Source: Candidatus Omnitrophota bacterium (GTDB taxonomy: Bacteria; Omnitrophota; Gorgyraeia; Gygaellales; Profunditerraquicolaceae). From it: a DNA stretch of 64,000 nt. Location: the NCBI GenBank assembly GCA_030018895.1, contig JASEHM010000001.1:2199-66198 (forward strand), written 5' to 3'. The translations under genes and the position numbers were made by a program. A model generated the notes under the pieces. It made no database searches. It was not told the DNA's origin and saw only the letters and a list, made by a program, of their open reading frames with translations. Each line of letters starts with the position of its first letter. The first letter of the stretch is position 1. This document shows, one piece after another, positions 33,001-57,000 of this stretch.

Positions 33001-36000
33001 GAGATTATCCTAAGAAGAGAATTAAACAAGCCAGAATTGAATTTAGACGAATTCATAAAATCTTTATCCGAGGAGAAGGCGAAGGTAGTGTTAAATACAA
33101 TAACTACCATATGTTACGACCGCAATGCAAATGATGAAAAGAAGAAATCCGATACTATTATGCACAAGTATTTCCTTCTAGCTTTAGTGAAGAATAAGGT
33201 AACTATCTCAAAAGGAGGTATTTTCAAGCCGGATAATTTACCTATTTCTGAAAAAACCAATATTCATGACGCAAAATATACAAGCTGGATGAGCTTTATG
33301 TCCAGAATGAGAGGAGAAATCAATTTTTCTCTTGACTGGGACCACATTCATCCATTCAGCGAACTTTGGTTTATACCTAATGCAGGAATGGAGTTTCTTT
33401 TTGATGACTGTCTCGTAGGCGGTCCTTACAATAGCGATATTTTTTCTCGCCCGATTTCTACGACTGCCAATGTTTTTGGTTTGATGGAAGAAGGCTGGCT
33501 TGACGGAGAGCAACCAGTTAAGGACGAGATTGATTCAATTCTTTTCTATGGGAAAGGTTTTCAAAAAGTAGCAGCTTTGAGGAACTTTGAGATGCTGGCT
33601 GCAGATGATAGCGTGCAGGAAGATGCTTTTGGTTTTGCAAAAGCCCTAATGCAAGGAGGCAGGTCAAGGGCATTTCACTTCTTTAAAATATTAAAAGGTT
33701 TAAGTAATCTTGTATTGGGAGCATTAATTCCATTGAAAAAATGGAGCGGTGATTCTTCAGAAGCAGTAAGATTACCAGCAGGCATTAAATTCTTTTTGAG
33801 CCCTAATATTTCCTGGACGAAAAAATTAGGGAATCTCATCAACTGGGGATTCTATATGAAAAAGCCCTCTGTAATGAGGGTAACAGTTTGGGTTATTATT
33901 CTTTATTATCTCGCTAATCTCAATCCTTGGTTTGGATTAGCTTTCTCTTTATGGTTTACTAGTATTCTTCTTGCTCAGGCAATTTCCTATGGCGGATTCT
34001 TTAAGTATACAAGTAAATTTGGAAGGATAAAAGGGGCATTGTTCTTTTTGCGGGATTTACTTACCAAGTTCTTTATCTTTTCCACTGGCATTATCCCTTC
34101 TTATGCTGATAGTGTAAAACGCGGTTTTAGCGCCTTTTGTAAGTTTATTAGGACAGGTGGCAAAGCCGGCACATTAGGCCGAACTAAAGGGAGTGAACTT
34201 TATATCTTTGGACATAAAGGAATCAGTGTAGCAGCTGCGCTGTTACTGTTTATTGCTTTTGCATCTTTTGATCCTATGAAATTTATAGTCTGGCTTCCTC
34301 AAATCGCTACAATCGTGGGCTGGTTAACGTTTATCTTCTTATTGGAACCGGTAAGTTCTAAAAAGCACGTACTTCTGAATATTGCTAATGTCGGATTAGG
34401 GTTTATATTAGGAATAGTAGATTTTGTTGCCAATATTATGACTAATTCTAAGGTTTTAAGTATCCTTACCGGCATACTATTATTATCACTTCCGGACTCT
34501 TTACCTGCCTGGATTCTTATATCTTGTATTGCTATAGCAGGTAGTATTGGCTTTGGCTTAAAATGGAGCAGGATGCTCTTTAATAAAAAAGTTTGTGAAG
34601 AGGCAAAGACTGTGCTAAAGCTGGCAAAGGATTATAAGATAAAGGGATATGCAGTTACTATACTTGAATCTTTTGTTTTGTCTACCGGATTTCATTACGC
34701 TTTAGAAGGTTATATTGAAGGAAGAATTAAAGGCTTACCTTCATTTATTATGGTATTACGTATTCTGTGGTTATCAAGAGATAAAGCACTTAACGAAAAT
34801 ATTAAAAAATCAGAGTTAGAAAATAAGCAAAAGGAAGAGGAAAAGAAGAAAGCAGAAGAGAGACAGAATGCAAAAGGCTCGTCTCCGGTAACGACTTCTT
34901 CACCTATTCCAACTCTAAATAATACTCAGCCAGATCAAATAATAAATACCGATAATGCGAACAACGAGCGCTTTGGCATTGCCAGAGAGCTTACCAAGGG
35001 CTTGGTAGCAGAATTACCCCAAGTATTAGGTAAGGTAGATATCTACGAGTTACTTAAAGCAGCTAATGGCATTCTGATTCTTGACCGTAACCGCTCACCC
35101 ACTGACATAGATGCTCATGCGGATAAAGAACGTAACTCTATTTGCGTCACTGTGCGTTCTGATGAAGACTTCCTTAATTTATCTATCCCAGAAGTAGCTA
35201 CCACCCTTATCCATGGAGCCATAGAGCTTGCCACAAAACAAGAAGCCTTAAGACGTAATATCGATTGGGAACAAATCGCATCGCTTGCCCAACAAACTGC
35301 CCTTAACTTTGCCCAGAAATATCAAGAAGTCATTACCCACAGATATGACCGCTTGCTGATGAGACAAGATATGCAGGTTGCCTTTAAAAATGGCTGGCGC
35401 GTAAAGAAGATTTACCAGACTGCCTTTAACCATGTTCAGGCTGATATGTATGCCTCCCAGGTTAATCCTGAAGATTATCCTCAAGACACTGAAGTCATCC
35501 CTGTAGCGGACCCCCCTCCTTATTATAATAAGGTAAGGGCTTTTGGTAATGGCTTAGCTAACCTGAATATAGTAAGGAACTTTGTAGAAAGGCTAATCCA
35601 GGAATTAAAATTAGAGCCGGGAACCTATAATTTAGTAGAACTTCTGGGTAATACCTTAATTATCGGCTTGCACGGTGGCGGCCAATCAGCCAGGAATCCT
35701 AAATATACCCAGATTGGTAAATTTAATGGTTATCTGCCTATAAGGAGCTTAAACAAAGACTTACCCGCTACCCTGCAGGAAGAACTCCTGGTGCCAGCAG
35801 CGGTCTTAAGCAGAATCTATCCAGACAACTTACCCGGCTACATCAATATCTACGGAGATGCCTTAATTACCTTTAATCCAAGAGAAGTAGAAAAAATTAT
35901 TAAGGCTAATCCTGAAATGGCCCAGGGTTTGATGATCTTCTTAAGAAAAGTTCCTGCTCGCGAAGCTTCTACTTGGGGTGCAGGTGCCGTAGATGAATCC

Positions 36001-39000
36001 TTGCGCATTCACCAATTTGTAGAAAAGGCCTTCAAGAGCACAGGTGAAATATCCAAAGGTATTATCCATGTGAATGAAGAGGGCTTTGTAATAGACACAG
36101 ATTTAGATAAAGCCAAACAACTTCTTGCCAATAAATACAGGCTCTTAGTAGAAGACCAGTATATTCTTATGAACACTGCCTTTGCCATATTAGGCCCACT
36201 TGCCCTTGTGCGCTGGGCGATTCTTTCAGGCATTGACATAGATACAGAAGGTAATTTTATCATTACAGAAAAAGCCAAGGCTTCTTACAACACAAAGAGC
36301 TTTTATGACTTAGTCCTAACCTATGGCTCAAGTGTAGATACCTTTGGTGATTTAGTGCCTCCTATGGGCGAAGACTTAAATATCATTGACTTTATCTTCT
36401 CTGTTGGCACCAAACAGCTTGAAGAGGCCAAGAAGAAAATCCACGCTGAAGCCTTACCTATCATAGAAGACATGGAAGGTAGGCTACAGGATTTACGCCG
36501 AGACTTCAAAGAAGATAGTTTCTCCTTGAAAAAATTAGAGGACAGTTTGAATAGCCTCTTAGAATCTCTTAAGAAAAGAATCCAAGAGGTTCAGGATGAG
36601 AAGACTGTTTCTGTGTTAAATGTCTGTGTATCTAGCATCTCTCAAATCCTGCTGCGTCAGATGCTCATTGAGGTTTTACGCCGCGGTGGCGCTGGCTCAA
36701 AAGCATGGGCTATACCCATAGAGGGTGAGTGGTTGGATACTGGAAGAACCATCGAGGAAGCACAAATCATTCTGGCCGAGGGAAAAGCCAACAGGCAGAT
36801 AGCCTCGGTGTTTGACTTTGAGAAGTCCATTGCCGCAAAGACCAATGTAGCAAGCCACTCTTTTGTCAGCATCATTGAGGCAGAACCTAAATCTCAAGTT
36901 GCCACAGATTCCATTCAGATTGCCTCTTATCTGAAAGGCAAAATTCATATGGACTCCAGATCTCAGGTGCACCTTGTAGACTGGCAAGGCGATTTACACC
37001 TCAACTCAGACGTGGTGATGTCTGAGGCAACCACCAGATATCAAGAGAAAGAATGGGTCGTGCACCTGCTCTGGGGATTACAGGATGGAGAGACCAATAA
37101 AATCAAGACCCACATAGGCCGTTCCTTAGAGGAATGGTTCACTGAGTTAAGTATTGACATAGATAAGATTTGGCCTCCTGCAACTGCGCATCTCTTAAAC
37201 ACTGCCAGAATCTTCCCTGGCTTAAGTCAGCAGATTTTAGAGCAAGGAAAGCAAATAGATGACTTGGATAGAGAGCTCTTTGACTCTATGAATGATATCT
37301 GGGGCTTCTTACAAGGACATACTGCCCCAGTTCCTGTTGCCTGGCTGAAAGCTTTAGAAGCAGAACGCCTCTTCTCTATGACTGATGCCTACAGTAAACC
37401 CGCCACTGAACTGATGCAACAGAGAAGAGAAGGATTGATGAGGAAGAAGAAAGCAGAAGAGAGACAGAATGCAAAAGGCTCGTCTCCGGTAACGACTTCT
37501 TCACCTATTCCAACTCTAAATAATACTCAGCCAGATCAAATAATAAATACCGATAATGCGAACAACGAGCGCTTTGGCATTGCCAGAGAGCTTACCAAGG
37601 GCTTGGTAGCAGAATTACCCCAAGTATTAGGTAAGGTAGATATCTACGAGTTACTTAAAGCAGCTAATGGCATTCTGATTCTTGACCGTAACCGCTCACC
37701 CACTGACATAGATGCTCATGCGGATAAAGAACGTAACTCTATTTGCGTCACTGTGCGTTCTGATGAAGACTTCCTTAATTTATCTATCCCAGAAGTAGCT
37801 ACCACCCTTATCCATGGAGCCATAGAGCTTGCCACAAAACAAGAAGCCTTAAGACGTAATATCGATTGGGAACAAATCGCATCGCTTGCCCAACAAACTG
37901 CCCTTAACTTTGCCCAGAAATATCAAGAAGTCATTACCCACAGATATGACCGCTTGCTGATGAGACAAGATATGCAGGTTGCCTTTAAAAATGGCTGGCG
38001 CGTAAAGAAGATTTACCAGACTGCCTTTAACCATGTTCAGGCTGATATGTATGCCTCCCAGGTTAATCCTGAAGATTATCCTCAAGACACTGAAGTCATC
38101 CCTGTAGCGGACCCCCCTCCTTATTATAATAAGGTAAGGGCTTTTGGTAATGGCTTAGCTAACCTGAATATAGTAAGGAACTTTGTAGAAAGGCTAATCC
38201 AGGAATTAAAATTAGAGCCGGGAACCTATAATTTAGTAGAACTTCTGGGTAATACCTTAATTATCGGCTTGCACGGTGGCGGCCAATCAGCCAGGAATCC
38301 TAAATATACCCAGATTGGTAAATTTAATGGTTATCTGCCTATAAGGAGCTTAAACAAAGACTTACCCGCTACCCTGCAGGAAGAACTCCTGGTGCCAGCA
38401 GCGGTCTTAAGCAGAATCTATCCAGACAACTTACCCGGCTACATCAATATCTACGGAGATGCCTTAATTACCTTTAATCCAAGAGAAGTAGAAAAAATTA
38501 TTAAGGCTAATCCTGAAATGGCCCAGGGTTTGATGATCTTCTTAAGAAAAGTTCCTGCTCGCGAAGCTTCTACTTGGGGTGCAGGTGCCGTAGATGAATC
38601 CTTGCGCATTCACCAATTTGTAGAAAAGGCCTTCAAGAGCACAGGTGAAATATCCAAAGGTATTATCCATGTGAATGAAGAGGGCTTTGTAATAGACACA
38701 GATTTAGATAAAGCCAAACAACTTCTTGCCAATAAATACAGGCTCTTAGTAGAAGACCAGTATATTCTTATGAACACTGCCTTTGCCATATTAGGCCCAC
38801 TTGCCCTTGTGCGCTGGGCGATTCTTTCAGGCATTGACATAGATACAGAAGGTAATTTTATCATTACAGAAAAAGCCAAGGCTTCTTACAACACAAAGAG
38901 CTTTTATGACTTAGTCCTAACCTATGGCTCAAGTGTAGATACCTTTGGTGATTTAGTGCCTCCTATGGGCGAAGACTTAAATATCATTGACTTTATCTTC

Positions 39001-42000
39001 TCTGTTGGCACCAAACAGCTTGAAGAGGCCAAGAAGAAAATCCACGCTGAAGCCTTACCTATCATAGAAGACATGGAAGGTAGGCTACAGGATTTACGCC
39101 GAGACTTCAAAGAAGATAGTTTCTCCTTGAAAAAATTAGAGGACAGTTTGAATAGCCTCTTAGAATCTCTTAAGAAAAGAATCCAAGAGGTTCAGGATGA
39201 GAAGACTGTTTCTGTGTTAAATGTCTGTGTATCTAGCATCTCTCAAATCCTGCTGCGTCAGATGCTCATTGAGGTTTTACGCCGCGGTGGCGCTGGCTCA
39301 AAAGCATGGGCTATACCCATAGAGGGTGAGTGGTTGGATACTGGAAGAACCATCGAGGAAGCACAAATCATTCTGGCCGAGGGAAAAGCCAACAGGCAGA
39401 TAGCCTCGGTGTTTGACTTTGAGAAGTCCATTGCCGCAAAGACCAATGTAGCAAGCCACTCTTTTGTCAGCATCATTGAGGCAGAACCTAAATCTCAAGT
39501 TGCCACAGATTCCATTCAGATTGCCTCTTATCTGAAAGGCAAAATTCATATGGACTCCAGATCTCAGGTGCACCTTGTAGACTGGCAAGGCGATTTACAC
39601 CTCAACTCAGACGTGGTGATGTCTGAGGCAACCACCAGATATCAAGAGAAAGAATGGGTCGTGCACCTGCTCTGGGGATTACAGGATGGAGAGACCAATA
39701 AAATCAAGACCCACATAGGCCGTTCCTTAGAGGAATGGTTCACTGAGTTAAGTATTGACATAGATAAGATTTGGCCTCCTGCAACTGCGCATCTCTTAAA
39801 CACTGCCAGAATCTTCCCTGGCTTAAGTCAGCAGATTTTAGAGCAAGGAAAGCAAATAGATGACTTGGATAGAGAGCTCTTTGACTCTATGAATGATATC
39901 TGGGGCTTCTTACAAGGACATACTGCCCCAGTTCCTGTTGCCTGGCTGAAAGCTTTAGAAGCAGAACGCCTCTTCTCTATGACTGATGCCTACAGTAAAC
40001 CCGCCACTGAACTGATGCAACAGAGAAGAGAAGGATTGATGAGGAAGTTGAAGAAAACCTCATCCCCTATTTCCACCCCTATTTCTAACTTCTCAGATAT
40101 AAAGACATTAATAAAAGCTTGTAGAAATGCAAATCCACAGGCAAAAATATTTGTTCCAGAGAAATCGAGTTTTGGAAAACTCTCTTTAAAAGAAATTCTC
40201 AGTTTAACAACCTCCAGTTCCCTGATACTTTCCTTAGAATCTAGACTAGTAGCAGCCATCGCCAAGAAGAATTCTTTTATCCAAGGCTCCAGCCCGCTTT
40301 CAGAAGTTATCCTGCCTGGTTTAACGTGGGGATTTTATGTTTTTGAGATTCGCGAATCAAAGGTAGGTGGAATTGCCGATGTCGCTGAAGGCCTTCCGGA
40401 AGCAATAGTAAGGGCTAAGACGCTTGATGGAAAGCCTCATACAGTTTATCGGGTGACCCCGTATTATAGAGATATATTCACTATGACTAATAAAATTCGT
40501 TTGGAAGACCAGAAATTAGTAGCTCAACTATGCATTCCTTATCAGCACCAAATAATTACTGTGGATGTATATAAAAGATTGCATGTTTCTAATATGGTTG
40601 ATTATCTGCTTGTAAACGAAATATTTAGCCGCCCATATGATAAATCAGATACCAAGAATCAAACTGAATCTGAAGAAGAGGTAGTAATATTTAATATTGT
40701 TTCAGCAATACTCATTATTTTAGGGGAAACTCAACCTGATGTGCTGCTTCTATCAGATTGGCAGACAGGTTTACTGCTTTCCTATTTAGAAGAAAGTGTT
40801 TCAGAGCCAACCGCGATATTAAGGAAGGTTGTTGTTAAGACAGAGAAAGGCAATGTTTCTGGTGAAGAATTAGTAAACGAATTTGTACGTTTAAAAGTAT
40901 ATGAATGGATGATACCGATTTGTTGGATTAATAATGAAGCTTATAGAGGGCAATTTCCTGTAAAAAATAGAGCGGACTTTAAGGCAAAAACAGGATTAGT
41001 TTCTCAGCATGGCTTTGAGTATGCAAGATGGATTACCCCAACAAGAGAAAGCGAACAATTTATGATTATGCTTAAGTTAGGGATAGAAAGCACTAATCGT
41101 TGTGGAGGAAAAATAGTCACAGTTAGCCAGGCTTATGCCAGAGAAATTATGGGTATAAACCTTAAACCAGAAAATCATCCTGGGATGCTTCACGGTATTT
41201 TAAAAAGAACAGAGGTTACAGGAATACTAAACGGCACTCCTAAAGAATGGAAATACATTACGGATTTAAAACAGAAGAGAGAGGCGAAGCGGTTGTTACA
41301 AGAAATATTAGAGTTAGATAAGTTTGCCTCTGCAATGTGCGGAGGGGAAATAGAACGATTAAAGCGAAAAAATTTTTGCTGTTTGGGAAAACGCTTGCGT
41401 TTTAGTTATAGTTATCTTAGCTCCTTGCCTTCTGGCTCCTTATTATACCTCGCCGTGGCTGGTGGGATACAAGGCGTTGTTGGTTCAAGCCAGAGGGCAG
41501 GGAGTTTTTTGATAAAGGAGTTTATTAATAAGGTAAAAAAATTATTACCACAAAAAGGAGGCGCAGGATGTATAGACTCAGAGAGGTGCAGATTAGGTCT
41601 TTTGAGGTGTTGCAGGAAAACAAGGGAATTTTTGTTCTGGCAGGGTTTCCGGGTTGGCATTCTACTTATGATTTCCTTATTCAGTCTAATGGAGAAGTTA
41701 AGGGAAGAACACACGATAATTGGCAGCTCCTTACAGATGAGACAGCTGAGATTATTAAAGGGAAGTTTAAAGAGGTACTTACAAGGAATTGATTTAGCGT
41801 TTGAAAGCAGCTCGGCGAGGTTGACGCAGGCACAGAAAAGAGTTACTAACTCGCCGTTAAGGTTGGAGAAAGAAACAGAAAAGATAAACAAAAATTTGAA
41901 TGAGCTTACGAAAAATGCAGTGGCATTATCAGACCAAAAAAAATTTTCAATTGAGGAGGATATACTTCTTATTGAGACTAACCTTAAGGAAATAGGGCGG

Positions 42001-45000
42001 TTGGGGTCTTTAGCAGAAGATTCACAAAAAATAGAAAATGACATTGATTTTATTCAATTACTCAATGAGGTAATAGATGATTTTAAAAAGAGGTTTCCTG
42101 ATATTACTTTTGTGGTTGAGAATAAGGCAGATGAAATTAAATTACCTGGTATTCGAAAAATAATAGAACACATCTTAAGGGAAATTTTCCAGAACAGTGT
42201 TAAGCATGAAGGTAAACAGATTAATATAGAGATTTCAAGAACAGAAGGCAAAATAGAGATTAGTATAGAGATTAGCATAATTGATAATGGTGAGGGTATT
42301 TCTAAAGAGAAACTGGAGAGGATTCGTAAAGTTTTGGCGCAGGCAGATACAAAGCAAAGCGAAAAAGAGAGTAGGGGCAGAGGCCTTTCTTATTTAAATA
42401 AACTTCTTTATGAGTACACTTTAATTGAAGAAAACCTAGAAATATATTCTGAAGGTGAAGGCAAAGGCACAAGGGTAAGATTCTTTTTACCTTTAGCTCA
42501 AGAAAAATACAGGGTGCCAGATATTCATAATCGGATAAAATTTATTATCCATGAGATAAACAATATTCTATGTACAGTGCAAAAAGCTTTTTTAAATGAA
42601 AAAAATACTGTGTTGGCAGATGCAACCAAAGGCACAATTTTAGTAGTGGATGATGAAGAAAACATTTGCGTCATATTACAAATGTGTTTCGAACAAGTTG
42701 GTTATACGGTTGTTACTGCTGCCACAGTAGAACAAGGATTGGAGACTTTCAAAGAAAGGCAGAAAGAAATAGGATTAGTTTTAATAGATTATACATTACC
42801 TGGTGGAGATGGATTACAATTAACAGGGAAGATTAAAGAGGTTTCTAAAGATATTCCTATATTTATTATGACAGGAAGGAGTCTACGCGAAGAAGATATT
42901 TTAAACTCAGGAGCAAAAGAAGTAATTCCTAAGCCTTTTAAATTTGAGGAATTACTAAAAAAGGTAGAAGAAGCGGTAACAGTTCAGCGTTCAGAAGTAA
43001 ATCAGGGTGTCATTCTCGCCCCCGTTTTCACGGGGGTAAACTCCAGCGGGAATCCAAAGATGGTTGACAGAATGGATGCCAGTTTTCACGGGTATGACAA
43101 AAACGGGAGGCGAGAACTTCCGGAAGCTGAACTGTTACAAGAAGCGGTATCTTCAGCAGTAGAGATTGTTAAAATGTTGTCATTGCGAGCCCGCCACACT
43201 TTGTGGCGAGGCGAAGCAATCACTTTTTTGAGATTGCTTCTTGCTTCGGTTTCGCCTCGCAATTGCAATGACGCGAAAATGGATTTTTTCAGCGTTTTCC
43301 TAGAATATCACTTGATACAACAAGCCTTAAAGGGTTTTTTCGGTCGACTTAATTCAGACTTTTCTAAACAACTTTTAAGCTCTCGCCAAACAATTCCTTT
43401 AGCAGGTTCTCCTTTTACAGAATTAGTTTCTAGTTCTTTGTTTGTTTTTAGTCTAACAGAGGCTATTAAGTTGATTCAGATTTTTGTTAAGGAGAAGGAA
43501 GGGGCTGAGATTGGAGAGAAGATAGGGAGCCTTAGTTCTGAAGAACTAAACGTCCTTACGGAAGCGATTATTGCTTGGAAAGAGTTGGAAGAGATTGAAG
43601 TAGGAGAGAAAGAAAAGAAAAGATTCATTGATATCTATTCTTCTAATTGCCAGTTCAGTAGTTTTGTTGGTTTTTTAAAAGATGCTATGCAGTCAAGGTT
43701 AGTAGAGCAGAGGGCAGAAAGAGAAAGTATTCTTTATGAAATTGTCGAGGAAATTGGGAAATTAGAGGGGGTTAGCCCGGATAAAATAGAGGAAGAGTTC
43801 GCTAGATTTAAGATGAAGGCATTAGAGGAGCTTCTTAAGGCATGGGGGTATAGCTATGAGATAGATGAGGAAGATAACTTAAGCCTTATTTGTTCAACAG
43901 ATGGACTAAAGGAGTCGAGTTATAAATTAACACCGCGAAAGCCTAATGACCCGGAAAAGAGTTTTCTTTGGGATTTTCTTAAAAAGTATTGGGAGCAGAA
44001 AAATACCCTTTCTGGGCAAAAGAAATTATTGGAAGGATTTAAGAAAAAATTGCCTATAGAGATAGTAGAAGTAATTATCTGGGATGGCGTTTTTCGGGGG
44101 CTATGGATTAAAGATAGATTCGCCTTTCTTAAGAAATTTTATCCGGAAAAAGTAGATAATGGAGTTTTAGATCAACTTGCCTCTGGCCATATCTTCTCAA
44201 GATTACAAAATATTTGCCTTCCTCAAAATTTAAAAGACGACTTAACTTGTTATCAAGGAGTTTTGCCTAAAGAGCTTATTTTTCTCCTTCCTCTCCCGGG
44301 AAAAGGAAAATATATTTATATGTTACATAACTGGGCTCAGGCCAGTATTGAAAATAAGCAATTTATCCCTCTAATTAAAGAAAAAAAGATTTTTTTCTAT
44401 TTGTTTAGGGCAATAGATGTCATTATTAGAGAAAAGGAAAAGATAAAACAAAGGATAACTGATAGCCGTACAGGTTTGTATAATGCCTGGTATTTAAAAG
44501 AAGAGCTGGAGAGACAAATAGGTTTGGCCAAAAGGCATGATAATCCCCTGGCGATATTAATGCTGGACATAGATCATTTTAAGAATTTTAATGATACATA
44601 TGGCCATTTAATAGGCGATATGGTTTTAAAGTATGTTGCTGAGGTGTTTAAGAGGATGGCAAGGAAAACGGATATTGTTTGCCGTTATGGCGGGGAAGAA
44701 TTTATGATTATCCTGTCTAACGCGGATTTAGAAGGAGGGGTGGTTGCCGCAGAGAGAATTAGGGAGGCGGTGAAAGAAATGAAAATTAAAAATATTAATG
44801 AAAAAATAACTATAAGCATTGGCGCAGCTTCTTTAGATAAGAGTTTAAGAAGTATCTCTGACTCTGAACAATGCCAAAAGGCATTTATTAAAGAGGCTGA
44901 TCAGGCGGTTTATATAGCCAAGGCAAAGGGGAGAAACCGAACAGAATTTACTATAAAACAGGTAATCCCTTATTTAGAGCCGGAAGAAGAATTATTTCCT

Positions 45001-48000
45001 GAGAAGTCTGTTTCTCTTTTGTATAAGGTGAAGGCGGAGTTCAAAGGAGGCAAGGAAGGGGAGAAATATACAGCATTGGAAAGGTGCTATATTATTAAGC
45101 GGCCTAAGCTGACTGTGCGCGATAATCGAGGCGAAAGGCTTTTGATAGAGAAGGTTGATGATATGCTTTTAGAAGAATTTGCTTATTGGGTTAGCCAAAA
45201 AGCAGGGTTGGGCTGGAAAAAAGATGGAAGGATTTTTCCTGTTGCCGAGGTGATTCAGAATGAAGAAATTTTAGAGAAATGCTGGATAGGAGCAGGGAAT
45301 GAGGCGGCGGTAATCATTGAGGAAATACCGGATATTAAAAAAAAAGAAATAATAGTGGATTCTCTTCTGAAAAGGAACCTTACTAAAGAAGAAAAGGAAG
45401 ATATCTGTGATATTATTATTCTTCATGCCTATTTGGCTAGCCAGGATTTAGAAACCCACCTTATATTATTTGATGAGGAAAATAGGATTGGCACCCTTGA
45501 TTTGGGAGCAGGGACATTGTTTCATTCGCGAAATCTTAATTCTATTTTGGAAGAACTTTTGAGTTACGTATCTCCTTTTATAAAAAAAGGGATAATAACA
45601 GCGAACGGCCTTGAAAAGTCTATTAAAAAGATAGAGCAGAATATTACTCGCAAGGATTTAGAAGAATTTTTTCAGGTGCTTAGGCAGAGGCGTTTACTTG
45701 ATAAAGGCTACGAAAAAAAAGCAGTAAAAGAATTATGGGAGCGGATTGCAAAACTACAGGGTTGCCTAGAATGGTATTTTGGCCTTAAGGAAACCTCAAA
45801 AGAGTATATTTGGAATATTGAAAGGCTATCAGAGAAAGAAAATTTTGAGCCACTTTTTTTAAAGCAATATATCATAAGGGCGATAGAGAGAATGGAGAGA
45901 GAAGGCCTTCTTAAAAGAAGCTTTAAAGAGTTAGAGATAGAAAATTTATCTGAGGAAATAACAAAAGTAGAGATTAGGTATCTTTCTTTTGAAGAAGATA
46001 TTTTGATTAATAGATTAAAATTTAAACTTATTTTTGGTGATGCGGTAGAGCATCAAGCAGAATTAGTCTTAACCCTGTATGTGAATAAGGGTTTTGGTGT
46101 ATTAAAAGAGAGCTTAGATATTTCTTATATGGCTGAGGAAATAAAAAAAGAGGTTTCTTTAAAAGAACCTCATGACCGCTGGCTCTGGGAGCCTGTTGGG
46201 CATTATCTTTGCTTAACCTTATCTGCCGCTTCAGCAGTGGTTTTTATAAATAGACTTATTACACAAAGATTTGGCAGGAAAGTAGGCTCTTGTCTTTTGT
46301 CTGTTAATTCGCCAATAAGAGGGCCCAATAATATATCAACGGATGAGCGTAAAAAATTTTCGGGAATTCCTAAAGAAGAAAAAATTAAGCTTATCAAAGA
46401 GTGTTATGGCAATTGTCGGGAGATTGCTAAAGCTGTTAAAGAATTGGGTGTTGAGATAACTTTTCAAGGGGTTGCAAGTTATATTCAGGGGGAGGAAGAG
46501 TTAAAACAGATTTGTATTGAGGCAAGAAAAAATCGTCCTTCAAGAGACATTAGAAAGCTTATTTTGAAACGTTGGAAGGATGAGAAATCAGGCTCAAGAA
46601 AGACTTTTATTGCGGCAAGAAAAAATCGTCTTTTAGGAAAATCTAAAGCACCTATTTTGGAATCTTTGGATAGTGTAATTGCAGAATGGATAAAGAATGA
46701 TTTCCAAAAAACTCCAGAGTTTTTTATTAGCGATAGAAATGAAGAAGATCTTCTTGCTCTCCCTGATTTGTTAATAAAGTGTTTTAAAACTGCTCAGACG
46801 CGACGCCAACGCGATAATTTAGCTAAGGCTGTTGAGTATGCCAGGTGCGTTTTGCGCTTACCTTCTTGTGATTGGCCAAATTACTATGGTTTAATAAAGA
46901 CAAAAGAAGACGCAGAAGGAGACTTTCTTGGCTTATTACAGGTAGTTTTAACTACTCAAGATGAAGAGGAGCGAATAACTGCAAGGATTCGCCTTGTTGA
47001 TATCATTGAGATTATTCCAGAAAAGTATAAAATTTTCTTAGTGGGCTATGAATTTGCAACGGATCCTAAAATTAAGGATAGGTATAGCGAACTAATAAAA
47101 TTTGGTATTGAACCATTTATATATTCGTCCCGCCTTAAGGCGGGGGGCTTTAGTATTTTGCCCCAAGAAACCTCTCTTATGGCGAGGGAGAGCTTCATAA
47201 TTGCTAACCAGGATGTTGAAAACTACCAAGACCTATTTAAGCGGATAGCCGGATTGTTTATATCTTTGCCTTACTTTAAGATGGGGCAGAGTTTCATTGG
47301 GGCTTCGCAGACTCAAAAAAATAATCTTCTAAGTAGCCTTAATTCTATTAGCATATATGTGCCTAAACATATTGCCAGTCTAGGAAATCTTGATCTCAGT
47401 CTCAAATGCTTTTATTGTGTTGAAACTGTTTCTCAGAGAAATACATTATGTTTTGTGATTAAGAATATTATCCGCGTGATTGGGCCTGGAAATATTCATT
47501 CTGATTGTATTGAAAAAATAAAAGAGCTTCTCTGGGATAATTGGCCTCAAGGAAAGACGATTTTCTTTGCTTCAGAAGCAGTGCTTAGGGAGAAATTTGA
47601 CTTATTGAAACTAGGAAGGGCAGGCTCTGCAATAAGCATGCCCAATAGGGCTATTCTTTGTTTAATTTTGCTGCTCTTGTCATTGCCAAATCGCAGTTTT
47701 GGCCAGATTGGGACATCTGCAGAAATATCTCTAGGAACATCTCCAGGAATATCCAAGGAAATATCTGTGAGAACATTTACAGAAGCGCCCCAAGGGTATC
47801 AAGATAAATACAAAGAACCAGTAGTAAATAAGCGGCTCCAGAAAGAAATAGAGCGGGCTTTGGAGCCAAAGAATGTAAAAAGGACAGAATATGCAGCAAA
47901 TAATCCAACAAGACTAAAAAATTCAAAGTCGCTTCCTATAAATTGCGGGGCTTTGCTTAGCTGGTTTTCATCTATTATATTTGAGGGCATAGTGAGTAAT

Positions 48001-51000
48001 CAGGTAAATGCGATTATAAAATTAGGCCTTTTTGGTGCGGGTTGGACATTGCCAATAAACTTATGGAAATCCGGATGGGAAATATCGTATAAAATGGAAA
48101 ATAATCTTCCTTTAGAAGAACAAATTGTTTTGCATGCGCTGGAACAGGCCATAGAAGAAGAGTATCAGAGGCTTTGTAAGAATAAGGAACTCTCTACTAG
48201 AAATATAATGAGTATTCTTAGAAATGAAAAGATTCAGATCAGAGAATATCTTCCTGATAGCTGGAAGGATTTAGCTAATGTGTATAAAGGGAGCCTGAAA
48301 AATATTTATTGGCAGATTTTTGAAAAAGTAGAATTTCCTCATTATTTTCTTAAAGATATAAGGCCTTTGTGTGTCCTGTGTTTTTATTATCCGGATTCAC
48401 TATATCTAGCAGATGCTTCTTTAAAGGGCAAAATAGTTAAAAATGATGTAGTCGGTTCTGTTGAGCAATCTATGAATAATTTTAGGAATACCCATGTGGG
48501 AATGGTGGTTGAAACAGAAAAAAAAGAGTTTTTTCATCCAGCAGGGACGCAAAAGATCGCTTTAAAGGAATTTTTAAAACAAAAATATGGCTTACAAAAG
48601 GACTCTTCATTAGATGCCCTGCTTATTTATTCCTTATATCAAGGAGAATACAAAGAGATAATATTAAATGAAGAAGGGGAGGGATTTTGTTTTGTTGATC
48701 AGGCTATTAATTGTCCTGTTATCTGGAAGCCTGGGGTATGTATAAAAGTAATTTCTCAGATTGTTATTCATGAATTTGCAGGAAAAGCAAGAATAGAGAA
48801 TTTAGCTAAAACTATTGATGACGACAAAGAAGGATTTAAGTTATGCGCGGTAATAAGGCTGGATGAAAAAAGAATCGAAGAGCTGTTTAATGAACAGGGC
48901 AACAACAGCCTAATAGATACGCCCCCTAAAAAAACAAATTCGCCGCTATATAAACAGCTGCCTTGTTTTTCGTCTTCTCCTGTAAGAACTTTCGCACATA
49001 ACCCTGCTGAAGAGTTAAGCGGTGAGGGTTCTAAATTAGAAGAAGGTATAAGAGAAACTGGTGAGTATAAAAAAAGAATGAGGCATATTAGAATAGTGGA
49101 TTTTAAAAGAGAGATTATAAAAAAAGATTTTATGAAAATAGATCCGGAATTAAAAAGCGCTCAAGTGGATGAGATAAATATTTTGGAATTAGGAAAAGGG
49201 CAGGAGTTTATTTTTAAAGATGTTTTGCCTATAGGTGAACTTTATGAATTATGCAATATTTCGGCTCGTTTGGCTGCAAGGTCTTTGAGATATTTAAGTA
49301 AGAATAGGAATAACTTTAATATTTTTAGAAAGGTATTGGCTGATTTGCAATGGATACGGAGAATTTTAGGAAAAGATCTTAAGTATTTTTATTCAGTATC
49401 TTGCGCAAGGACAAAACCTGGTCAGGCTGGATTGGAGCCAGGAGAGATACTTGGTTATGGAGAAAATAAGATTTGCATGGTTTATTTGCCTTTAGAGTTT
49501 TCCCAGGGATTAATTACTTCTGGCTGGATGGGAACAACAATTGGGTTTTTGTTTGCCAAAGATATAAAAAACTTGCCGCCAGGATACTTTTTTAAGGTAG
49601 TAACTCCTAAGAAGATAAACCTAAGCGAGATTTTAAAAAAACATTACGGTAAAAAAGATTTCTGTTCTTTGGTATTTAAGGAAATAAAGAAAGAAATACC
49701 TGAATTTAGGCCGCTTGTTTTGTTTAGAGAGTACAATCTTCCCGTAATAGAAGCGATATCCGGAGAAAAGGTAGAAGATTATTCAGCATTAAAGAAACGG
49801 CTGGAACGTAACAAGGGAAGGCTTTGGTATAAGGGTATGCTTCTGGTGCTAAATGATGATTGGTCAAGATTAGATTTAGGATTAGGGGAGAAGGTTAATG
49901 GGGTTATGGGTATAGGAGGCATGCCTCAGGCATTGTGGTCAGCAGCGCAAATATTAAAATTAGAAAAAAAGAATTTAGATTTTGCCGGTTTTTTTGTAAC
50001 TGAAAAAGGCGGGTTGCCCTGGGAAAACACTTTTTTACTTGAAGAAAAAGAAATATTCAAACGATATGGAATAACCTTGGATACAGTTTTTAAGGCAAAA
50101 GAGTTGATTCCCTGCCTGCCAGAGGAAATATTAATGATTCTGAGCGTAATAACCCCTTATCGTTTCAAAGATAAGATTATCCCTGGGCCAAAAATAGATG
50201 ATAGCGGAAAAGAGACAGTTCATATAGTAATGGTAGATATAGATGGAGGTATATTAGACATCCCTGTAACTTATACAACAGGGATTTGTTTTAATCGTAA
50301 CGTTAAGAAGATTTTAAGCCTTGCTGAATTTGGTTTATTTTTTCCGGGGCTAGAAGAACTTAAGAAACTAAAAGGCCTTAATTTGTCTTTTATAGAATAT
50401 CGAATATTAAGGTATTACCTCTTAGGATTATGGAGTTTAAATTTTAGCCGAAAAGACCCTAATCAAAAAGCTTTAAAAAGTTTTGAGCAGGCCATTGAAT
50501 TAATAATAAAACATAACATTAAAATATTCAAAGGGTTGAATTTATCAGGAAAAATAGCCAGGATTTACCAATTTTTAAGAGATGAAGAAGACAGAAAGGG
50601 AAATCTTGAGAAAGCCTTAGAGTCTGCTGAGCTGGCAGTTAAGCATAAAACAGATTTGGAAACAGTGAGGAGGTATTATCGTTTATTGTTAAAAGATGTT
50701 GTATCCGGCTATAAAAATGAGAGTGATTTAGAGAAGGGTTTAGAAAAGCTGTCCCAGCTCAAATGTCCTGGCTTAGAAAACAAAGATAAAGATTGTTTAT
50801 TTTTTGCTTTCTTGCTAGAGACATTCCTTTTAGAAAAGCATCCTCTTGAACAGGTTAAAATTGTAAAGGGGCTATTAAGATATAAGCAGGAGCAGATAGG
50901 AAAAGATGGCAGATTAGTAGATTCATTTTTAAAAAATAACAACCCGGGCATTATTTCTTGGATTAATAATCTTCAGGAAAATTTTATGTTTAAGATATTA

Positions 51001-54000
51001 AACTTTCGTTTCTTGGAGAGGCTGGGATATTTTCCTGTTACAGATACTCAATTGAACCATTTTTCTCGAGAAGTTCAGGACTTACTGGATGCGCATCTGG
51101 AGTTGGGCATGATGCCTCAAGAGGCAGTCTTTTCTTTAGGAAGCATGTATTATTTGCAAGGAATATTTTTGCTGGCTTTAGATTATAAAGAAATGGCAAG
51201 AAAAAATATCAACAAGGCTATTGACCAATTTGGTTTAATTATATTTAAAAAGGGGGGTCCTTTTGGGCTGATGGCATACCAATTAATTCTAGAAATTCAT
51301 CAAGAGATGCCGTTATTCTTTGGCCAGCTTATTCACAATGGTGGAATGGAATTAACGTTAGATGGGTTAGCTGAAAAGTATGGGAAACATTGTCCTGAAG
51401 AGATTATAAAAGGCCAGACAGAGTTCATAAAGAATTTGACAGAACAGTCCCAGTCGGAGAATGAACTCGCAACTTCTTCTTCTGCAAGGAGTTGTGTAGA
51501 AACGGTACTATTAAATTCACTAAACTCTTCAAGCCCTGTTAAGCGGGTAGGTCCTGTTGGATCCGTCTCGAAATTTGAGTCTCTGCTACGAAAAGAGTTG
51601 GCCGCGATGAAGGATTCCGGGGGAACGAAGTTGTACCCGTCCAATGTGTCGCGTCAGAATAGGGTCACGATTGCGCCGTGTCGGGTGGATAGGGTCACGA
51701 TTAGTAAAGAGGCCCGGGAGATATTCAAAAATGCAAGGCCCAAGTCCAGCCAGCCGTCGATCATGTCGGAAAAAGACCTTAACGGCAATCTTGATTTCAT
51801 ATCGTCCCTGTGTGAGTTCGTAAAGCAGTTTATAGAGGTATTTTGGACAGTGAAATCTTCTGAGGATACGGATCACGAGAACAAGGATGGCGTTTCTGCG
51901 TCTTCTGTCAAGGAAGGATCTTCTTCGGTCGTTTATTCCAGCAGTCCGAAGGCTTCTTCCTCATTTAAGCAGGCACGAAGCCGCGCTCCGCCCTTTGTAG
52001 TTGTGTTATTAATAGTTCCCTTCATATTTTGTGAAGGAGAGACAAGGAATTTATCAAAATCCCTGCCCCCATCTTTACCTTCGTTTTCAAAGCACAGTAG
52101 AGTTCTTGAAACAAAATCTCTACCCACATCTTTATCTTCGTTTTTAGATCATAGTAGAGTTCCTCCCCTTTCAAATTACAGTGGAGTTCTTAAAAACGCG
52201 CGCATTAATTCAAAAGATCGATTTGGAATAAAGGCATGGACAGCCTATACAATGTTGGATGAGATTACTAAGAAGCTGTATTCTGAAAAAACAGTATCAG
52301 AGCGTCGTTTAATAAATAAATACGTATTAACCAATATTTATCATGAATCGCTTTTGATATATAGGAGGCCTATATATCGTGGCGGGACTGAGCGCGGCTT
52401 GGCTCAAATAAAGGTGGGCACTGCCAGGGATATCCTTGAGAGGCTTGTAAAGGGAAAAGCTAATTGGGAGGAGTTTATTGCAGATATTAGCGGTTATTCC
52501 TTCTATGCAGACCTTTTAAACGAGAATAATGCTGTTCTTGGCAAGATGTTAGAAGATAATGATGGGTTTAGTTTTATTCTTTCAACAATATATAGTATGA
52601 ATAGGTTAGATAAGGAATCTCTGCCTGTAGATTTAGAGGGGATGACAAAGTGTTGGGCCAATTATAATGGGATTGGGAAAAAGCAAAGAACGCCTCCAGA
52701 GGAAAAAAGATTAAAGGATTATAAAGTTCATGCAGAGATAATTAAGCCTATTCTTGAAAGAATCATTTCTTTAGAAAGGTTCTTAAATTTTGAAGAGTTT
52801 CTGAATCCTCCAAAAAATATTGGAAACTGTTTCCGTCCCAATCGGGAAACTGTTTCCAGCGCAATCGGGACAGTGGGATGCAGTGAAGTTGACATAAGCT
52901 GTTCTGCTTTGAAAATGAAGGGGTTTGTCGGTTCGCCAGTTAGCCGGTTGCTTGAAATTGCCGGCTCGCCGGTGAAATATAGCTTGTTAGTTGATATGTT
53001 GTTAATACTTGTTGATTTTGATGGTTTTTGCAAGGCAGGGATGGAAGATGTTCACGGTCTTGAGGATAGGATTAGGGTCTCCTCGCCCGTATTTTCGATA
53101 CCGAAAGATACCGAAGATTTGGATTTTGCTTGGAATTTGATGGAATTAAATGCTTTTAACCCCGGATTAGAACATAAAATTTCTTTTGTCTCCAGTCCAA
53201 TTTTTAAAATGCGGCCGAAGGTAACAGTTCAGCGTTTGGAAGTTCCAAGCGCTGAACTGTTACCTTCGGAGACTGAAATTGGGGGTAAGAAAAGGAAGGA
53301 AGAGAATGATCTTTTTATTGAGATGGATACGTTAAAAAAGAAATTGATGGGTTGTCTTAGAAAAAGTCCTTTACTTGCAAAAATATTACAATGGATTTTA
53401 GATGAATTAGAAAAAAAGAACAATAATAATGGAATCATAAAAAATAAACTGTCTTTTTTTAGTCCACACCAGAAGCGTAAAGTAAAACAAGAAATTTTTG
53501 CTTGGATGAATAAGGAGCATTGTGAAGTGGCAGCCGAGTTTTCTACGGAGTTAATTTTTCTAGTTGTGGATTTGGTTAAAAATATAATCTTTTCTATAAA
53601 AAACGAAAAAATAAATAAAGATAAATTAGAGGAGATTCAGTCTTCTTTGGATGAGATTGTCGCTTTGAATAACAAGATTGAGAAAATAGCGGAACTGTGG
53701 CGAAAGATAAAAGAGGAGATAGTGGAACAAAATGTAGGCATAGTAACATCTATCGTGACTAAAAACTATTTTAATGGGGCTTTATTCTTTGAGGAGCGGA
53801 TACAGGCAGGGTTGATTGGGCTAGCTGAGGCTGTAGAGAGGCACGACTACAGAAAAGGTATATTATTTTCTACCTATGCTGATTGCTGGATTAAGCGGGA
53901 AATACTAATGGTTATGCAAAAGGAGAGTAGTGATATCTGGATTCCCGTGTATATGCAAGAGAAGCATACAGGGCTTGAGAATAAAAAGACAGAATTAATC

Positions 54001-57000
54001 CAGAAACTTCTAGGAGACCCGACAATTGGCCAACTTGCTCAAGCCTTAGGATGGCCAGTTGAGGAAGTAAAAGAAGTTTTAAATGTTCCGATGCATGTAG
54101 TTTCTCTATCTACACCTGTGGGTAAGGAAGGAGAAACTTCTCTTGGCGAGCTTATAGAGAGTCCACAGGCACGGGATTTGGAGGGTTCAATCATAGAAGA
54201 ATTGAGTGCTGAACGGCCTGAAGAGACCCTTAAAAAGGCCTTGCATCAACTTCTTCTCATCGATAGGCTAATTGTATGTTTGCATAATGGCTTGTCTATT
54301 ACTGGAGAAGTAGTTAGCAATGAAGAAATTAATCAACTTAAATCATCTATTAAAAAAGAAGCACTAAATAAGGCTATTATGAACATGAACCCCTTAAGTT
54401 ATCGCAAGATTGGTGAGCTATTGGGATACACCGGGGAACGCATACGTCAACTCAAAAAACAAGCGTTACTAGATTTAAAACAACTAATAGGGGGAGGTAT
54501 AATCTTAACCGATAGTATGATACTTAGCAAAGTTAAGCCTATTAAGAAGATCCCTGGTGTAATCAGAATTTTAATGGAAGAAAAAGGAATTATTATTCCA
54601 TCTATGGTTGTTAAGTCGTTAGGGATTTCTATTCCGACACTTACTAAATATATTAAAGATAATCCTTCTGATGAGATAAAAGATTTGATGAGGCAGCTAG
54701 GTATTCATAATCAGATTCTTCGGGCGATAAAAAGGCTAGAGAGGCTGCCCAAAGCGAAACAAAAACTAATTACGGTAAAGATGCTTGTTCAAGAAATAAA
54801 GTTTTTTTCTTTAACAGACATAGAAAAAGCAAAAAATGAAATAAATAAACGTATAGAAAAACATCTCGGGGCGAGAAAAGAAATATTAAAACATGTGGGA
54901 GCGGTGCCAATATTCAATTGGGAAACTGTCAATTGGGAAACTGTTTCCAGCTTAATCGGGACAGTGAGACGCAAGGTCAAAATCGCCGGCTCGGAAGTGG
55001 ATTTATCTCTAACTTCTTCTTCCGTAAGCAGTTCCGTTATTAATTCAGCAGGCCAAAGCAACAACGCGCCGGAAAAAATTGAAATAATTGAATTTTCGTT
55101 TCTGAAAAATACTATGGGTTGTATCATAGAAGCTGGTAAAAGAGATATGCAAAAACAGAAGATTGAGAAAATTTTGATTTTGCGTAATTTAGGATTTATT
55201 TTAAAGGAACTAAAAGAGTTAAAGAATATGAATGCTATTTTGAATAAATGGGCCATAGAAATTATTATAAGGTTTAGAAGACAGCTTATTGAAGAATTTA
55301 GAAAAACAGAGAATTCTATTTCTAATGGCAAAGAAAGCAGTAATGACATAAATATTAAGGAGCAGTTTAAAAAAATAAATATTAGAGAAAAAATAATATT
55401 AAATTTTTATTGGGTAGGAAAGAATCGGTGCTGGAAGATTTTAGAAGAAGGATTGAGTAAGCCTTGGTTTATTCCTGATATTGGAAGAGTGGATGAAGAG
55501 CTGGTGCAGGAGAAAAAAAGAAAAGAGGAGTTGATAGCCACCATCTTAGGGCAGTTACAAACAGGCACAATGATTCAACGTCAGATAGAAGAGGAGCAAG
55601 ATTTAAGACAATATATACCGCGAATAAAGATAAAGATTGAGTCTGCGGAAGAAAATCTGGGAGAGGCAGCAGTATGGGCAGAGGAGGTTTTCGCAAAAGG
55701 AGTAGATAGTTTTAAAAAAGATGCAGATACAGTGGAGAATAGGCAACTCAAGGCATTTGCTATGGAGTTAGGGGGCGTATTGGAGAATATGATTTGGCTG
55801 GGAGTTCGTGCTTATGATTATCAAGATGAAGAGACGATAGATTTTATAGGTAAGGCCAAAAAGGAGGAAATGATTAAAGATTTAGTCAAAGGATTGATAA
55901 GTAGTATTGATCAAGGCCTTAGTAAAGAGCCTGAAATTATGCAATATACTTTGCAAATTATAAGACAATATTTGCAGGGGCTTCTTTTAGAGGATTTAGC
56001 CTTAGGATATGAAAACGTGCTTATGCAAAAAAGGGTTAAGTATGCATTAAGAGAAGCATTTATAGGTTTCAAGAGGCTAAAAACAGAGATGCTTGATTAT
56101 CTGCATGAGCTTTTGAAAGAAAAAAAAGAAAAAGTAGATGTTAATAAGTATTTCAAAGAAGGCATTGAAAGAATGCTTCAGGGTATAGGAAATTATCTTA
56201 TTAATAAAGTAGAATATCAAACAGCGCATTATGAAGGAGAAGACTCAGTGATTTTAAAATTGAATTATATACCTACTCCACAAGAATTTTTAAATTGCTT
56301 TATAAAGGTTTATGGCAAAAAATTGGCTGCAATTATTACTTGTGCAGGAACGCCGCAGGCACATTATGCTTTGTTGGCTGAGTCTGAAAGAATACCAGTT
56401 TTTATTATTGCCAGGGAAGATACGGATTTAATTAAACAAAATGATAAAGTTGTGATTTTTAGTAATGGAGAGGTGATTATTAATCCTAGTCCGCAAACAC
56501 AAGACGAATTTGCCGTTGCACAAGGAGTTCAACAAAAGATTGACGAATTTTATAGTGAAAAGGCGCCGGAGTTGTTAAAAATACCGGTTGAAATGAACGC
56601 TGATTCTAAAGATGAGATAGAAGTAGCAGTGAATATTGTCCAGGGTATTGGCCTGGTAAGGACTGAGAACTTATGCCAGGGAATTTTACCTTTTTTAATT
56701 ACTGAATGGCAGGATTTATTCAGGGAAATTTTAAAATCTGCAAAAGGAAAAAGAGTTACTTTTAGAGTCATTGATTATCAACCGGATAAAAAGCCTTTGC
56801 CTTTTGCTTATCAACGCTACCTAAGGCCTAAATGGTGGAAAGATCATCCCCTGGGCAGAGCAGTGGCATTACAGATATTACAGGCTCTCATCAGATTGGG
56901 AAAAGAAGGGTATGGTTTTTTTCGAGTAATGTTTCCTATGGTAGAAGATGTTAGTGATTTGCAGGCAATAGAGCAGATAATAAAAAAAGCGCAAGAGAAG

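Follow-up and report, generated by a model that had tools for sequence, protein, structure and literature searches.

Why does a stretch of DNA from a Candidatus Omnitrophota bacterium that reads as a single giant protein carry the parts of a two-component system together with a cyclic di-GMP (c-di-GMP) synthase, and are those parts likely to work? The stretch comprises positions 2,199 to 66,198 of contig JASEHM010000001.1 (GenBank assembly GCA_030018895.1); these 64,000 nucleotides are referred to as the window, and all coordinates are nucleotide (nt) positions within it. The signalling block in question runs from an ATP-binding domain of the histidine-kinase type (the CA domain) through a receiver to a GGDEF diguanylate cyclase. 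With a probability of about 0.6, we explain it as an ordinary modular protein of the hybrid-kinase/receiver/sensor-like/diguanylate-cyclase type that is built into a giant multi-enzyme open reading frame (ORF) of the Archaeovorin kind. In functional terms, the block most likely serves as a c-di-GMP source in the cytoplasm and has a kinase that is either degenerate or rewired.

The block is part of a single giant gene, as an earlier reading of the sequence alone had proposed. Frame 1 of the forward strand has no stop in 21,333 codons, spans the 64-kb window and is open at both ends, whereas each of the other five frames contains 726 to 2,205 stops. The parts of the block are listed here with their evidence, including AlphaFold2 (AF2) models and the confidence scores of these models (predicted local distance difference test, pLDDT).

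1-64000, + strand: giant multi-enzyme reading frame of the Omnitrophota 'Archaeovorin' type (stop count and Pfam matches)
41632-41688, + strand: weakly hydrophobic helix LFWQGFRVGILLMISLFSL (Kyte-Doolittle 19-residue mean 1.64)
41701-42030, + strand: helical region of about 110 aa at the DHp position and of a length that suits a DHp (AF2 helices broken at Pro, pLDDT 40-65)
42034-42507, + strand: CA domain, histidine-kinase type (Pfam HATPase_c, matches to YycG/WalK and ThkA, AF2 pLDDT 76-94)
42523-42612, + strand: 30-residue helix in the linker between CA and receiver, with an H-box-like motif (AF2 helix, pLDDT 58-70)
42637-42969, + strand: complete receiver (REC) domain (Pfam, alignment with TrrA and Spo0F, AF2, Foldseek)
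42968-43146, + strand: element resembling a miniature inverted-repeat transposable element (MITE), with its target duplication; the 163-nt element itself, 42976-43138, comes directly after the last receiver helix
43147-43950, + strand: predicted all-helical orphan spacer of about 268 aa (AF2 helices, pLDDT <50)
43951-44385, + strand: alpha/beta domain of about 145 aa, just ahead of the stalk (AF2 pLDDT 50-75)
44386-44457, + strand: stalk (signalling) helix (AF2 helix 416-439; aligns with the stalk of DgcR 6zxm and the coiled coils of WspR and DgcB)
44458-44940, + strand: GGDEF diguanylate cyclase (Pfam, TIGR00254, alignment to DgcR, PleD, WspR and DosC, AF2)

Pfam places HATPase_c (PF02518) at nt 42157-42498 (59-62 bits, E ~1e-16), Response_reg (PF00072) at 42637-42969 (71-73 bits, E ~1e-20) and GGDEF (PF00990) at 44458-44940 (148-151 bits, E ~1e-44; TIGR00254, 163 bits). 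All three domains are therefore confirmed where the sequence-only reading had put them, and the alignments reveal no loss of key catalytic or phospho-acceptor residues. Individual residues were placed by alignment to solved structures together with a coordinate script. The Bergerat-fold CA domain, aligned with YycG and ThkA, has a full set of boxes, with the N-box Asn at nt 42193, G1 (DNGEG) from 42283, G2 (GRGLS) from 42376 and a GKGT turn. In the receiver, DD lies at 42649-42654, the phospho-accepting Asp of LIDYTLPG at 42787-42789, Thr at 42871 and Lys at 42931; its AF2 model scores pLDDT 93-98 and superposes on solved receivers with a root-mean-square deviation of ~1.0-2.1 A among the top Foldseek matches listed.

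The cyclase carries the A-site GGEEF at 44689-44703 and the I-site RKTD at 44662-44673, exactly five residues ahead, as in DgcR and PleD. Its RKTD-IVCRY-GGEEF segment aligns with RKSD-IISRF-GGEEF of DgcR (6zxm), the best solved-structure sequence match of the domain (E = 6e-33). The metal ligand Asp 44566, the guanine ligands Asn 44590 and Asp 44617 and the phosphate ligands Lys 44926 and Arg 44932 are present, and the model (AF2 pLDDT 97-98) superposes on solved cyclases in Foldseek. An RxxD inhibitory site occurs in many, but not all, GGDEF members. The boxes, the acceptor Asp, the GGEEF motif and the I-site that had been read from the letters were all found intact in the structure alignments. 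Judged by their residues, the CA, REC and GGDEF domains are complete: those predicted to serve ATP binding, Asp phosphorylation, GTP condensation and feedback inhibition by c-di-GMP are all there.

The kinase half looks degenerate or rewired. When the block was aligned with the HisKA profile, as the sequence-only reading had suggested, no match appeared at E<=10, and the same holds for HisKA_2 and HisKA_3. A DHp-plus-CA profile built from 4 matches found no HisKA-type domain on either side of CA. The region upstream of CA was not aligned by a 16-sequence profile of HELRTPL-type DHp domains with all filters off, nor by hmmalign to two kinase profiles of 257-260 columns, which aligned CA only. 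In 57 relatives the phospho-accepting His precedes the N-box Asn by 110-121 residues, with a mode of 118 (116-121 in HELRTPL-type relatives). No canonical His is found at about 110-121 residues before the N-box Asn of the block. At 118 residues stands an Arg (nt 41839-41841) in QKRVTNSPL, a segment that retains the [ST]PL of HELRTPL, and the sole His of the pre-CA region (nt 41710-41712) lies 161 residues ahead of the N-box Asn. The spacing, rather than demonstrated homology, tentatively suggests that His has been replaced by Arg; in a gapless scan with a position-specific scoring matrix the register of Arg 41839 ranks 57 of 283 and is not favoured.

Other candidates for a degenerate H-box were rejected. 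LNELTKN, for which the profile weakly favours a place in DHp helix 2, lies too near the N-box, while the Arg in LKRYLQG, which MAFFT sets opposite the His of relatives, requires a 28-residue gap. Kinase-like DHp/CA scaffolds in which the canonical His is replaced are exemplified by DivL of Caulobacter (Tyr) and the subfamily-2 plant ethylene receptors. These are conserved families with demonstrated regulatory roles, whereas the Arg replacement proposed here comes from spacing in a single sequence. Because Arg occupies the position where a His of canonical spacing would be expected, the phosphoryl group of the receiver most likely comes from another kinase or a small donor, and less likely from the His of the linker helix.

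That second candidate lies between CA and receiver, in the helix FIIHEINNILCTV, with its His at nt 42550-42552 and no Pfam HisKA match at E<=10. The helix includes the H-box-like motif IIHEINNILCTVQKA at nt 42544-42588. In the nearest kinase relatives the H-box reads GGIAHDFNNLL, and their consensus IAHDFNNLL was derived independently of the query. When a profile of 38 H-box segments from relatives was run against the block, IIHEINNILCTVQKA was the single positive local match, with a score of 2.9 bits and E-values of 0.007 for the block and 0.19 for the entire giant protein. For the pattern H[DE][FILVM][NRK]N[FILVMP]L, 0.0035 occurrences are expected in 21,333 aa and one is found; a second copy of the motif was present in none of 27 motif-bearing relatives. 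The helix sits inside a CA-REC linker of usual length (46 aa, against 43-56 aa in standalone relatives), and it is not a complete DHp domain because only ~10 residues separate it from the start of the receiver.

The sequence-only reading had described the domain order as non-canonical. In part this stands, as the only H-box-like helix follows CA; the remainder does not, as CA-REC-X-GGDEF is the ordinary order of standalone proteins. The claim reduces to one point, namely that the recognisable His-bearing helix lies after, not before, the CA domain. This could be the sole feature of the block that is new in kind, on the strength of one 15-residue match in one sequence.

Among the proteins retrieved, the same order is found in four standalone ones, three of which read HisKA-HATPase_c-REC-GAF-GGDEF (P0255, P0208, P0205) and one of which (P0218) has no Pfam-detectable middle domain. 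Such hybrid kinase/cyclases share with the block the CA domain, receiver, sensor-like domain, stalk helix and GGDEF domain, and a NahK/ErcS hybrid-kinase profile aligns continuously with the block from CA through REC. Unlike the block, they have a clear HisKA, whose His precedes the beginning of the HATPase_c match by 104-105 residues. They are 860-1,584 aa long with ~180-200 aa between REC and GGDEF, whereas here the ORF exceeds 21,000 codons and the two domains are separated by 1,488 nt, or ~495 aa, in good agreement with the ~1.4 kb estimated earlier. The phosphorylatable receiver, GGEEF, RxxD and stalk helix are also seen in DgcR of Leptospira (6zxm), WspR (3bre, 3i5a) and PleD (1w25), but in those proteins the receiver is joined straight to the stalk. 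The PleD family model (NF007135; REC-REC-GGDEF) reaches 170 bits where the cut-off is 474, and the block has one receiver and no second receiver-like adaptor.

From receiver to cyclase, the interval consists of the MITE insertion, the orphan helical stretch (~268 aa), the alpha/beta domain (~145 aa) and the stalk helix. The helical spacer at 43147-43950 has no Pfam or NCBIfam match and no homologue among 5.8 billion proteins. Foldseek aligns the model through the alpha/beta domain with IsPadC (5llw, 400 columns), a phytochrome-cyclase, and with Dcsbis (4zmu, ~256-260 columns), a GAF-GGDEF protein, and a BLASTP alignment to P0260 reaches into the domain. No GAF domain is matched there by Pfam, and hhalign against GAF domains was negative (probability 0.06). 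The model suggests that this domain is possibly a degenerate sensor fold of the GAF/PHY kind. Orphan sequence makes up much of the giant protein; nt 43141-44457 (439 aa) and 44941-48972 (1,344 aa) have neither a Pfam match nor a detectable homologue in the same 5.8 billion proteins.

The presence of such a block in a giant protein was thought unusual by the sequence-only reading. The literature indicates otherwise: HATPase_c, receiver and GGDEF domains are already published as common components of Omnitrophota giant proteins, and the block is here individually dissected. GGDEF occurs in many Archaeovorins, HATPase_c and GGDEF are among their 20 commonest domains, CheY-like receivers have been noted, and most giant genes are closely followed by pilZ genes (West-Roberts et al., 2023, 10.1101/2023.11.21.568195). 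Among 779 long Omnitrophota proteins, HATPase_c was counted in 136 and Response_reg in 105; the bulk of these proteins, termed multi-enzyme long proteins, are read as cytoplasmic, and most are sequence singletons (Nielsen & Lui, 2026, 10.64898/2026.06.07.730766). A further example is MBU4312050.1 (P0181), an Omnitrophota giant fragment of 5,552 aa that fills its 16.6-kb contig and has PAS-GGDEF and REC domains. The window resembles the Archaeovorins in its giant stop-free ORF, in its GT5/GT1, PEP-utilising, peptidase and helicase domains and many hydrophobic segments, in the embedded HATPase_c, receiver and GGDEF domains and in its mostly homologue-free sequence. The Archaeovorin papers give domain counts only, in contrast to the anatomy described here of a CA domain that has no recognisable DHp or His, a linker helix with an H-box-like motif, a ~495-aa spacer and a MITE.

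A surface location, also suggested earlier, is unlikely given the need for ATP and GTP, the weak hydrophobic segments on both sides and the flanking enzyme domains of cytoplasmic type. The helix at 41632-41688 is possibly, if marginally, a membrane anchor; the next hydrophobic peaks on the 3' side lie at nt 46207-46263 and 47629-47685, and no hydrophobic segment occurs from ~nt 41700 to 46200. Because the peaks flank the block at 41632-41688 and from 46207 onwards, the block would fall in a single compartment. Its codon usage is typical of the gene (block-to-gene distance 0.098 against 0.128 +/- 0.018 for equal-size windows), which speaks against a recent foreign origin and leaves the suggestion of captured cargo with no compositional support.

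Searches for an orthologue were uniformly negative. Against 5.8 billion proteins the block gave single-domain matches alone, at 15-30% coverage, and the top match of an exhaustive phmmer search of 1.84 billion representatives was an unrelated protein with eight GGDEF domains. A scan of GTDB genomes was swamped by the generic GGDEF peptide pattern and gave no orthologue. Nothing was found by a JGI metagenome scan with the linker, or by protein searches with the linker alone and with the 1,344-aa downstream flank. This outcome agrees with the reported singleton nature of most long Omnitrophota proteins. Each domain is 25-45% identical to its nearest relatives, yet about two dozen catalytic and ligand residues are intact. 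The retention of these residues despite divergence, the high model confidence, the typical codon usage and the recurrence of the domain classes are indirect evidence that favours function of the receiver and the cyclase.

If the block works as we propose, it would lie on the cytoplasmic side, where ATP and GTP are available to it and no hydrophobic segment interrupts ~41700-46200, and would supply c-di-GMP locally. A pair of cyclase domains, contributed by two copies of the protein or by a partner, would associate via the stalk helix, by analogy with the PleD/WspR/DgcR family. The phosphoryl group would probably reach the receiver from an external donor, the linker-helix His being a less likely source. 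The pairing or activity of the cyclase may be modulated by the alpha/beta domain next to it and by whether the receiver is phosphorylated; coupling to the receiver is uncertain given the long spacer. Product binding at the RKTD I-site would cap the output, and PilZ proteins, reported to be encoded just downstream of such giant genes, may be the readers of the c-di-GMP.

Several observations weigh against this account. The searches gave no orthologue of the block, the linker or the downstream 1,344 aa that could directly reveal purifying selection. The topology comes from crude hydropathy alone, and the 3' end of the giant gene, and hence any pilZ gene, is beyond the window. The Arg-for-His register depends on spacing, the kept SPL and low-confidence helices, and the gapless profile is unsupportive. 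Similarly, the GAF-like label of the alpha/beta domain is backed solely by a medium-confidence model, and REC and GGDEF could be uncoupled by the ~495 aa between them, which include the transposon and the orphan spacer. Part of this evidence also fits a vestigial origin, in which a signalling gene was engulfed by the growing ORF and is now a spacer kept open by anti-stop selection, its three activities being irrelevant. The lost canonical His and unrecognisable DHp, the transposon and orphan spacer and the orphan surroundings are all compatible with such a history. However, the survival of about two dozen key residues in three domains at 25-45% identity would be unlikely under neutral drift, AF2 confidence is very high for REC and GGDEF, and hundreds of Omnitrophota giant proteins share these domain classes. 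We therefore regard vestigial cargo as unlikely, while ranking it first among the alternatives.

The same missing His could instead mean that the kinase is rewired as a self-contained phosphorelay, with the phospho-His on the helix after CA (nt 42550-42552) in a permuted alpha2-CA-alpha1 arrangement and the signal passing from CA to His to Asp 42787 to turn the cyclase on. The CA boxes are intact, the canonical position is without His, and the sole H-box-like sequence in 21,333 aa lies <=15 residues after the C-terminus of CA and 28 residues before REC, on a 30-residue AF2 helix, and matches the independently derived IAHDFNNLL consensus of the nearest kinase relatives. Yet the match covers just 15 residues (2.9 bits; E = 0.19 for the protein as a whole), with no Pfam HisKA match, a single helix and no second DHp helix before REC, moderate AF2 monomer confidence at the helix and no orthologue to show conservation; a literature search for permuted DHp domains gave no precedent. 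Such a relay is improbable and stands below vestigial cargo in our ranking, and the fuller proposal of a working kinase with its His on a helix C-terminal of CA, whose cis relay from His(42550) to Asp(42787) switches the cyclase in a giant membrane-anchored multi-enzyme protein, is more doubtful again. If true, the permuted alpha2-CA-alpha1 kinase would be a topology not described before. Least probable is that the HATPase_c domain is an anti-sigma-type Ser/Thr kinase (RsbW/SpoIIAB-like), for which a DHp is unnecessary, and that its target is the sigma-70 module encoded 11 kb further 3' in the same ORF. The absence of DHp and His, a weak HATPase_c_2 match (E = 0.0025, 18 bits) and a complete Sigma70 r2-r3-r4 module at ~nt 53722-54480 speak for it. 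Against this, HATPase_c_2 falls below its cut-off of 27.4 whereas PF02518 scores 59-62 bits, the domain is closest in structure and sequence to the CA domains of sensor kinases (YycG, ThkA, PhoR), the CA-linker-REC segment aligns with hybrid-kinase family profiles, and no STAS partner domain is detected in the window.

The insertion after the receiver has the hallmarks of a MITE, with inverted repeats, a target duplication, multiple copies and no transposase. It ends in imperfect inverted repeats of ~22 nt, and a perfect target-site duplication of 8 bp, AAGAAGCG, flanks it. Element and duplication together add 163 + 8 = 171 nt, or 57 codons, so that the frame is preserved; the element is open in one of six frames, which is the frame in use, and its excision in silico restores ...KKVEEAVSSAVEIV... 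The G+C content of the element is above that of its surroundings, and its RNA fold has z = -4.7. A second copy, also in frame, lies at 23632-23787 (5' end truncated, 90% identity), solo repeat ends lie at ~16648-16669, ~19408-19429 and ~53221-53264, and partial copies occur in seven metagenome contigs (loci L081-L087). Two unrelated Candidatus Omnitrophota proteins contain segments that share 76% and 53% identity with the 55-aa peptide encoded by the element: a valine-tRNA ligase (P0048), where the segment is internal, and a TPR protein (P0038), where it is N-terminal. In behaviour, the closest known counterparts are the Rickettsia palindromic elements, which, like other in-frame MITEs, are short and palindromic with inverted repeats and leave the reading frame unbroken, and which place one peptide in unrelated proteins (PMC10969869). 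Unlike them, the element here is of another sequence family and, it appears, another phylum, and the window has just two long copies and solo ends.

Beyond the block, the giant frame combines domains that are usually separate proteins, including a helicase, an M23 peptidase, glycosyltransferases, a sigma factor and a phosphoenolpyruvate (PEP)-utilising enzyme.

~11160-11475, + strand: Helicase_C (Pfam, above threshold)
~22174-22446, + strand: Peptidase_M23 (Pfam, above threshold)
~36800-37224, + strand: Fucose_pyrophosphorylase, duplicated (Pfam)
~40345-40806, + strand: Glyco_transf_5 (Pfam, above threshold)
~53722-54480, + strand: complete Sigma70 r2-r3-r4 set (Pfam)
~56569-57303, + strand: PEP-utilizers_C (Pfam, above threshold)
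near the window's 3' end, + strand: second Glyco_transf_5 and Glycos_transf_1 (sub-threshold, 19.4 bits each; the Glycos_transf_1 cut-off is 26.4 bits)
residues 5097, 11627, 11633, 12494, 12500, 13354, 13430, 16325, 17177, 17694 and 17731, + strand: copies of the motif (S)SSP[IVLA] (nt = 3 x residue - 2)

A crude hydropathy scan gives 42 hydrophobic peaks, with clusters at 17-21 kb, 30-34.5 kb and elsewhere, and this domain set with its hydrophobic helices matches the Archaeovorin-type giant proteins of Omnitrophota. The GT1 half of the glycogen-synthase fold was not detected 5' of the block, and Pfam scans of the whole translation found no PilZ, EAL or HD-GYP domain within the window. The sigma-70 module, with regions 2, 3 and 4, lies within the giant ORF ~9 kb 3' of the cyclase, and no anti-sigma or STAS partner for it was detected in the window.

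A perfect tandem duplication (100% identical) occupies 34843-37443 and 37444-40044. Its 2,601-nt unit, equal to 867 codons and in frame, includes the Fucose_pyrophosphorylase domain and has a higher local G+C content (0.43); it is either a very recent event or an assembly artefact. The motif (S)SSP[IVLA] occurs 11 times in the window protein against 0.93 expected, with codons that differ from copy to copy, and 18 times against 0.43 expected in the Omnitrophota fragment P0181. Typically a recognisable domain follows 10-20 residues later, as GT5 does after the copy at nt 40288, and the motif may be a module-junction mark, a processing site or a linker. Its presence in P0181, like the MITE peptide shared with two Omnitrophota proteins, suggests an Omnitrophota origin of the window. 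Opposite the region just upstream of CA lies an antisense ORF at 41412-42044 (- strand, 210 aa, ATG start), one of only three ORFs of at least 150 aa outside the giant frame and probably a by-product of coding-strand composition. Internal promoters and terminators around the signalling block show no enrichment over shuffles.

Earlier work on giant bacterial proteins of this kind consists of domain counts, to which the residue-level anatomy of one signalling module is now added. The absent canonical His together with the H-box-like linker helix is a small, testable oddity of two-component signalling, and a fragment of ~1,100 aa makes part of an otherwise intractable protein experimentally tractable. 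Further, the in-frame transposon, together with the recurring SSP[IVLA] motif at possible junctions, has a bearing on how such genes expand without losing their open frame. With an active cyclase, giant multi-enzyme proteins would carry their own second-messenger source, which fits the pilZ genes reported in their neighbourhood.

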